From: Escherichia coli O127:H6 str. E2348/69 | GTDB taxonomy: Bacteria > Pseudomonadota > Gammaproteobacteria > Enterobacterales > Enterobacteriaceae | Assembly: GCF_000026545.1 (NCBI RefSeq) | Contig: NC_011601.1 | Strand: one strand, 5' to 3' | DNA length: 64,000 nucleotides | Shown: piece by piece, positions 50,340 to 51,046 of the stretch | How the letters are laid out: every line of letters begins with the position of its first letter | How positions within the stretch are numbered: the stretch's first letter is position 1 | Translations under genes and position numbers: made by a program | The notes under the pieces: generated by a model | What the model saw: only the letters and a program-made list of their open reading frames with translations | Databases searched by the model: none | What the model was told of the DNA's origin: nothing

Positions 50340-51046
50340 AAATATCCTCCGGCATAGCCGGAGGTTTTTCAAATGCGCCTATAAGGCTCTCTTACCAGCC
50401 GCGCCCTAACAGGCGCACACGATCTGACATTTGCATCCAACTTCGTTACTTACGGCCCGTAAACGGGCTGCCCGGATAGGGAATCGATAACTGCTCTCCC
50501 ATTTTATCCTCTTCAAGCTGGTGCTTTATGTAATCCTGTATCTTCGCCGTGTTCTTACCCACCGTATCGACGTAATACCCTCTGCACCAGAACTCCCTGT
50601 TCCTGTACTTGAATTTCAAATCACCAAACTGCTCGTAAAGCATCAGACTGCTTTTCCCTTTCAGATATCCCATAAAGCCGGATACGCTCATTTTGGGCGG
50701 GATCTCCACAAGCATATGGATATGATCTGCACAGCATTCAGCTTCCAGAATCCGTACACTTTTCCACTCACACAGCTTTCTCAAAATACAGCCTATTGCT
50801 CTACGCTTCTCTCTGTAGAACACCTGTCTTCGGTATTTTGGCGCAAATACTATGTGATATTTACAGTTCCATCGGGTGTGCGCTAAGCTCTTTTCGTTCC
50901 CCATTGGGACCCCCTTTTGATTTCTTGTTTGACACTTGCAGTTGCCAGACCGCAAGGTGTTTTAACAAATCAAAAGGGGTTTTAATAACTGGCTCAAAGC
51001 TGAAAGCTTTCCGGAACCCCCAGCCTAGCTGGGGGTTTTCTGTGCA
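50340..51046 (-). mobile_element. IS200-family insertion sequence (IS200/IS605 group), about 0.7 kb
   Basis: single Y1/HUH transposase gene; subterminal hairpins near both ends; long 5' stem-loop occluding the tnpA RBS; boundaries estimated (+/-15 bp) from the roughly 0.7-kb expected size and the flanking add and ydgJ stops. Confidence 0.7.
50446..50904 (-). CDS. tnpA: IS200-type Y1 (HUH) transposase TnpA
   Basis: ORF 50446..50955; start at internal ATG preceded by AGGGGG; 152 aa with HIH (HUH) motif and catalytic-Tyr region YVDTVG. Confidence 0.9.
   Translation of the reverse strand: MGNEKSLAHTRWNCKYHIVFAPKYRRQVFYREKRRAIGCILRKLCEWKSVRILEAECCADHIHMLVEIPPKMSVSGFMGYLKGKSSLMLYEQFGDLKFKYRNREFWCRGYYVDTVGKNTAKIQDYIKHQLEEDKMGEQLSIPYPGSPFTGRK

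Follow-up and report, generated by a model that had tools for sequence, protein, structure and literature searches.

The type member IS200, a 707-bp element of Salmonella enterica, encodes one 152-aa Y1 transposase, as do its E. coli isoform, IS200C, and the copy described here. IS200 transposes very rarely in the laboratory and is repressed at several levels; in its published map a bidirectional terminator at nt 12-34 stops transcription that enters from outside, and a stem-loop of the 5'UTR at nt 69-138 hides the ribosome-binding site (PMC4513863). The closely related IS1541 of Yersinia pestis expresses STnc490 (PMC4513863); it differs from the present IS200C copy in its host and in its much higher copy number.

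The TnpA proteins of IS608 (Helicobacter pylori) and ISDra2 (Deinococcus radiodurans) are homologous to the one encoded here. Like the present copy, these elements have hairpins near their ends in place of inverted repeats, insert 3' of a short conserved target adjoining the left end without duplicating it, and have their top strand on the lagging-strand template. They differ in possessing tnpB as well and in targeting TTAC or TTGAT, whereas the element studied here has no tnpB and lies at TTTT-N-TT following a hairpin. Guide-target pairing is a feature of IS608, and for IS200 we infer it only. Group IIC introns are reported to insert at a T-rich motif immediately past transcription terminators or attC hairpins (PMC7923331); they occupy the same genomic niche as the IS200C copy, but with unrelated machinery, a ribozyme and a reverse transcriptase in place of an HUH transposase.

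Here, we analysed a 64,000-nucleotide stretch of E. coli DNA (the window) in which the convergent genes add and ydgJ are separated by an insert. This insert is an ordinary, intact and already annotated IS200C copy in strain E2348/69. As a genome feature it is minor, since it is a known IS, with public annotation, in a well-studied strain and at a harmless intergenic spot; a full-text literature search returned no paper naming both IS200 and E2348/69. The features discussed below are collected in Table 1.

Table 1. Positions, in window coordinates, of the IS200C copy, its parts and the adjoining host terminator.
Feature	Position	Strand	Basis and remarks
IS200C element	50337..51047	-	711 bp; common block of seven copies, Ch1 tandem period, no K-12 match
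Right-end subterminal hairpin, CCTCCGGC-TAT-GCCGGAGG	50346..50364	-	8-bp stem; in all copies
tnpA, 152-aa Y1/HUH transposase	50446..50904	-	ATG at 50904, stop at 50446-50448 within the range; WP_000526113.1
Plus-strand feature	50896..50985	+	placed only from the published Salmonella IS200 map (PMC4513863)
5'UTR stem-loop of tnpA	50911..50979	-	predicted fold; third helix of the Rfam match
Rfam RF01405 (STnc490) match	50914..51037	-	146.4 bits against a gathering score of 56; model 1-124 of 124
Small left-end hairpin, AAAGCTTTCAGCTTT	50996..51010	-	predicted fold; second helix of the STnc490 match
Left-end hairpin, AACCCCCAGC-TAG-GCTGGGGGTT	51015..51037	-	10-bp stem; folding; first helix of the STnc490 match
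Target T-tract (TTTTT on the IS strand)	51048..51052	-	directly 5' of the left end
Native add/ydgJ bidirectional terminator hairpin, GGATGGTGC-TAATT-GCACCATCC	51054..51076	.	in the K-12 and L002 empty sites

An IS200C copy in the add-ydgJ spacer

The stop codons of add (50332-50334) and ydgJ (51082-51084) delimit a gap of 747 bp (50335-51081), exactly as counted in the initial annotation of this DNA, and it contains one convincing ORF, tnpA. In K-12 MG1655 the corresponding spacer measures 33 bp (TAA-CAAA-ATGGATGGTGCAAATGCACCATCCAT) and holds the shared hairpin alone; the closest empty site, L002, whose flanks are 99.8% identical to ours, reads TAA-CAAAAA-TGGATGGTGCTAATTGCACCATCC. K-12 and the closest B2 strains thus have a precise empty site, and the earlier statements that K-12 has only a short shared terminator here, and that this terminator survives in the window as the hairpin at 51054-51076, were both correct. 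The strain had also been recognized as non-K-12: the 1,601-bp region around the element shows 100% identity to E. coli E2348/69 (EPEC O127:H6), NZ_CP059840.2, LT827011.1 and LT903847.1, and the window is that of E2348/69.

The element had been assigned to the IS200 family and placed at 50340-51046. These 707 bp are 100% identical to elements at many loci, whose tnpA is labelled 'IS200/IS605-like element IS200C family transposase' by RefSeq, and the same IS200C annotation in E2348/69 bears out the assignment; the isoform name used here is the RefSeq/PGAP naming of WP_000526113.1. The location was likewise right, while the length was slightly short. Seven copies at different loci share a common block, 50337-51052, and diverge beyond it, and strain Ch1 holds two copies in tandem that repeat every 711 bp, with the junction GTGCAC-AATAAAT; from this block and this period we place the ends of the unit at 50337-51047, with the T-tract target next to the left end. 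Because AA is present at both borders, the unit can equally be read as 50339-51049. Compared with Salmonella IS200 we see no difference of substance, the 711 bp found here against the quoted 707 bp being a matter of how A/T bases common to the element and its flanks are assigned.

Neither end is an inverted copy of the other, so that terminal inverted repeats are absent, and subterminal hairpins are found at both. The 711-bp unit has a single real ORF, tnpA, and no tnpB; the remaining listed ORFs overlap tnpA on other frames or strands. Among these is a 121-aa ORF antisense to tnpA inside the IS (50521-50886, plus strand), probably a by-product of the tnpA reading frame. Nothing was found that contradicts the identification, and we hold it as close to certain that the insert is an IS200C copy, of the IS200 group of the IS200/IS605 family in its minimal, tnpA-only form, inserted in the 33-bp add-ydgJ spacer.

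Relative to the closest empty site the insertion measures 712 bp, 1 nt more than the unit. The A-run at the site varies, with A4 in K-12 and A5 in L002, and we treat the excess as homopolymer variation, which requires that the ancestral allele had A6 or that the A-run slipped. In strain A30, removal of 711 bp from the filled site restores the K-12-type empty site exactly, from which we conclude that the target was not duplicated; other strains match the A5 empty site, and the window copy differs from it by 1 nt in the A-run.

The earlier statement that K-12 carries no IS200 also held at megablast level. A chimeric query, made of the K-12 intQ marker and IS200, matched at one place, through the marker only, in NC_000913.3 and in every listed K-12 derivative, and no IS200 was found there at this level. 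K-12 is presumably not free of the wider IS200/IS605 family, as we take it to carry IS609 remnants. In H71 (NZ_CP169755.1) and H72 (NZ_CP044403.1) an IS200C copy and an intQ-like integrase gene are separated by no more than about 70 bp, and in these genomes the marker and the IS were for this reason matched as one place.

Ends, leader and probable regulation

On the IS strand, the right end reads TTTGAAAAA, then the 8-bp hairpin, then ATATTTATT, the last bases of the element. Read on the plus strand, the same hairpin is followed by TTTTT and is terminator-like in a consensus scan, 12 nt past the add stop codon. This likeness explains two weak Rfam matches at 50297-50370, Ysr202 (28 bits against 315) and sroD (22 against 50), which are far under threshold and were rejected. 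The left end begins, on the tnpA-sense strand, with GTGCACAGAAAA, followed by the 10-bp hairpin (51037-51015) that corresponds to the terminator hairpin of Salmonella IS200. At both ends G-AAAA(A) stands directly 5' of the hairpin, and both hairpins fold as single-stranded DNA at about -10 to -12 kcal/mol, with z about -4. Hairpins close to both ends had been noticed at the outset; the limits then given for the right one, 50346-50364, stand, while the left one spans 51015-51037 and not 51017-51036.

The 163-nt leader has a predicted folding energy of -64.2 kcal/mol (z = -5.1). Its large stem-loop, at about 50980-50911, is the counterpart of the Salmonella stem-loop, and in the predicted fold its 3' arm pairs the GGGGG Shine-Dalgarno sequence (50910-50914), just upstream of the ATG. 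A long stem-loop burying the ribosome-binding site of tnpA had indeed been proposed, with an extent, 50908-50995, that we correct to 50911-50979. The STnc490 match lies on the tnpA-sense strand; it supports a conserved leader and not the expression of an antisense RNA, art200 being antisense as published. A consensus scan of 50200-51200 gave no promoter-like sites, and neither the tnpA nor the art200 promoter was placed.

If the copy behaves as its Salmonella relative, its expression would be kept low because the left-end hairpin would end incoming transcription, the 5'UTR stem-loop would conceal the ribosome-binding site and the antisense RNA art200 would block translation (PMC4513863). The host terminator directly upstream would be a further barrier against read-through from ydgJ, so that tnpA would lie behind two terminators in series.

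A target site behind terminators

At the left junction the order on the IS strand is the native ydgJ/add terminator hairpin, ATTTTT, and then GTGCAC, where the left end starts. The element is thus inserted directly after the ydgJ-side T-run of the terminator common to add and ydgJ, and each of the seven E. coli copies shows, on the IS strand, a GC-rich hairpin and then a T-run ahead of its left end.

A larger set of left-end flanks was gathered with one exact 17-mer, and the sample consists of close relatives of IS200C. The scan of one genome per species (GTDB representatives) gave 39 loci, five of them chance matches (L027, L028, L043, L054 and L057); pooled with the E. coli copies, the scan loci yielded 39 unique genuine left-end flanks from E. 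coli and other Enterobacterales. The hairpin scoring was run on 40 flanks, which included the chance locus L043, and the 39 genuine flanks leave out all five. In 36 of the 39, a GC-rich stem that is perfect over 6 bp or more begins within 14 nt; by eye, the remaining three have imperfect hairpins. Two controls were taken from these loci: the test is passed by 6.5% of the A5 runs elsewhere and by 3.2% of random positions. Counting back from the left end on the IS strand, positions -1 and -2 are T in 39/39, position -3 in 27/39, and positions -4 to -6 in 36-38/39, with the GC core 6-12 nt away (median 7). The consensus is a GC-rich hairpin plus TTTT-N-TT, directly 5' of the left end. The copy of Yersinia pekkanenii (L052), a host related to that of IS1541 by genus, has the same left end behind a terminator.

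Judged from these sequences, the target, read in the direction of tnpA, is an intrinsic terminator, and the right end of the element, a hairpin and then ATATTTATT, is of the same form. Terminator-like sequences are known to be enriched upstream of ISs, most strongly for the IS200/IS605 family (bioRxiv 10.1101/2025.07.22.666184), and this general upstream enrichment is all that full-text searches for an exact IS200 target rule returned, the older insertion-site papers being outside their scope. We tentatively propose, as a possibility that we rate somewhat below an even chance, that IS200-group transposases recognise intrinsic terminators as structured single-stranded targets, and that target capture is a mimicry of the right end. 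If true, this would explain the exact placement, the repeated hits on one terminator in unrelated strains and the Ch1 tandem; if also undescribed for IS200, it would provide a rule of structure plus sequence for target choice by the simplest known autonomous IS. The rule is concrete and can be tested in vitro. A fixed orientation, one T-run past a terminator hairpin, would moreover help to explain how a nearly silent element persists without harm to its host.

The link with terminators could instead reflect survival: the transposase would land broadly, and only insertions at harmless sites past terminators, where tnpA is silenced, would persist. Intergenic sites behind convergent genes are neutral places, and insertions inside genes do occur, the first described IS200 insertion being reportedly within hisD. 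A survey of IS niches also regards upstream terminators as contexts that limit transposase expression (bioRxiv 10.1101/2025.07.22.666184). However, selection for neutrality would fix neither register nor strand, whereas the placement is exact to the nucleotide, with T at -1 and -2 in every genuine flank and the GC core at a narrow distance, the orientation relative to the hairpin and T-run is constant, and such a hairpin follows only 6.5% of the A5 runs elsewhere in these loci. We therefore consider survival alone an unlikely explanation, though the most serious of the alternatives.

Three loci (L021, L022 and L041), possibly truncated remnants, have beside a terminator no more than about the last 27-30 nt of the IS200 left end; in place of the upstream arm of its hairpin they have unrelated sequence.

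Copies of the element in other strains

IS200-type matches were found at 10,745 places in 3,094 of 5,426 complete E. coli genomes, 1,287 of these places being on plasmids, and in 2,063 of the 5,426 a place covers at least 80% of the query. The E2348/69 assemblies have 7-8 places each. Near-identical copies, with 0-2 differences in 710 bp, occur in six different contexts, and the unit is repeated at unrelated loci, on chromosomes as well as plasmids, as is characteristic of a mobile element.

The window copy itself might nevertheless be a dormant relic, immobile despite its intact look. IS200 has a very low transposition frequency with repression at many levels (PMC4513863), and the copy at the add-ydgJ site is identical in three E2348/69-type assemblies. 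On the other hand, the ORF, both ends and the leader are all intact, and the dormancy of IS200 is a matter of regulation and not of decay; its 707 bp recur without a difference at other loci in unrelated strains and, at 99.9% identity, on a plasmid, which points to recent movement of this very variant. A relic is, in our judgement, quite improbable.

At the add-ydgJ site, the whole query matched as a single place in 22 genomes, and the tandem pair of Ch1 brings the number to 23 among the 5,426; with so few occupied genomes, the site is usable as a strain marker. Three types of junction were observed. TAAC-AAATAAAT is found in E2348/69, CS18F and XJ6.1, TAAC-AATAAAT in 98192, Z142-2, DSM 111506 and Ch1, and the insertion in A30 is offset by 2-3 nt. 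The IS variants at the site differ from the window copy at 5 to 29 of 710 positions; DSM 111506 has flanks almost as in E2348/69 and an IS with 5 differences. From the differing junctions and IS variants, these sequences indicate at least two or three independent insertions at the add-ydgJ terminator.

The same observations bear on whether the element was gained by the E2348/69 lineage or was ancestral at add-ydgJ and lost from K-12 and most strains. Since IS200/IS605 elements excise precisely, an empty site is, taken alone, indistinguishable from one that was never occupied. Yet several gains fit the scarcity of occupied genomes, the offset in A30 and the diversity of junctions and variants better than thousands of losses, and we regard ancestral presence as very improbable and gain by the E2348/69 lineage as the reading to retain.

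In Ch1 (L017, NZ_CP127316.1; 490-1911) the two IS200 copies form a direct tandem, head to tail, in which the left end of one copy abuts the right end of the other (...ATATTTATT).

The transposase and its proposed movement

The tnpA ORF is intact, with the HIH motif at residues 61-63 and Tyr125 in YIKHQ. The protein scores 145.9 bits against NCBIfam NF033573 (IS200/IS605 family transposase; cut-off 55) and E = 1.9e-37 against Pfam PF01797 (Y1_Tnp), in agreement with the single 152-aa Y1 HUH transposase, HIH motif and catalytic tyrosine that the initial annotation had read from the letters. Its relatives in the PDB are 2ec2, 2f4f, 2a6m (IS608 TnpA, 1.1e-18) and 2xm3 (ISDra2 TnpA, 4e-16), and the alignment with 2ec2 shows identity at the HIH and at the tyrosine. 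For IS608 TnpA, the matched residue ranges put them near its His64, His66 and Tyr127. That the gene is instead a REP-associated tyrosine transposase (RAYT), belonging with REP sequences and not with an IS, can be dismissed as having next to no likelihood: the weak match to NF047646 (REP_Tyr_transpos) that might suggest it reaches 31.4 bits, below the cut-off of 80 and set against 145.9 bits for NF033573, and the gene moves with both ends, the whole forming a unit of 711 bp. Nor is it a single-copy gene between REP pairs.

In a scheme modelled on IS608 and ISDra2, the Y1/HUH transposase (His61, His63, Tyr125) would bind single-stranded DNA at the hairpins near both ends. It would cleave at the left end 3' of the target T-run, and at the right end 3' of ...ATATTTATT. 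A single-stranded circle would be excised and pasted 3' of a new target, without target duplication. The target chosen would be a GC-rich hairpin followed by TTTT-N-TT, a form resembling both an intrinsic terminator and the element's own right end, and the G-AAAA(A) tracts could act like the guides of IS608, by pairing with the T-rich cleavage sites. It is from these homologous systems that we infer single-strand excision and integration, guidance by A-runs and recognition of a hairpin in the target.

The GC skew of the plus strand is mostly negative, from which the minus strand, the top strand of the IS, is taken to be the lagging-strand template. A bias towards the lagging-strand template has been reported for the IS200/IS605 family (PMC5027513), and the orientation of the copy fits it, as a single case with a 50% prior.

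As for the neighbouring genes, ydgJ would retain the native hairpin and a T5 tract. The add gene would lose direct contact with the shared terminator, and would have the right-end hairpin and TTTTT, 12 nt past its stop codon, instead. The insertion is thus plausibly near-neutral for add and ydgJ.

Other differences between the window and K-12

In a local megablast against K-12 1651000-1720000, the window aligned in three collinear blocks at about 98% identity, and only 50339-51048 and bases 1-12 were unmatched. The insertion had been called the sole non-core DNA in the window; against K-12 this is so with the exception of bases 1-12, 'non-core' being judged here against K-12 alone. The unmatched bases 1-12 fall exactly where the Qin cryptic prophage of K-12 ends (1652745), which means that E2348/69 and K-12 have different DNA directly ahead of the window's first base.

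Between ydgA and uidC (window 38645-38675), K-12 carries about 150-180 bp of extra DNA (1691402-1691551). This DNA has a REP-like look and lies between two copies of a terminator hairpin (AACGCCGGAGA...TCTCCGGCGTT), where the window has a single hairpin without the insert. In rsxC (window 56388-56909), a 96-bp in-frame tandem repeat is present in 5.4 copies with 89% matches, and the array is also seen in the K-12 alignment, as shifted secondary matches.
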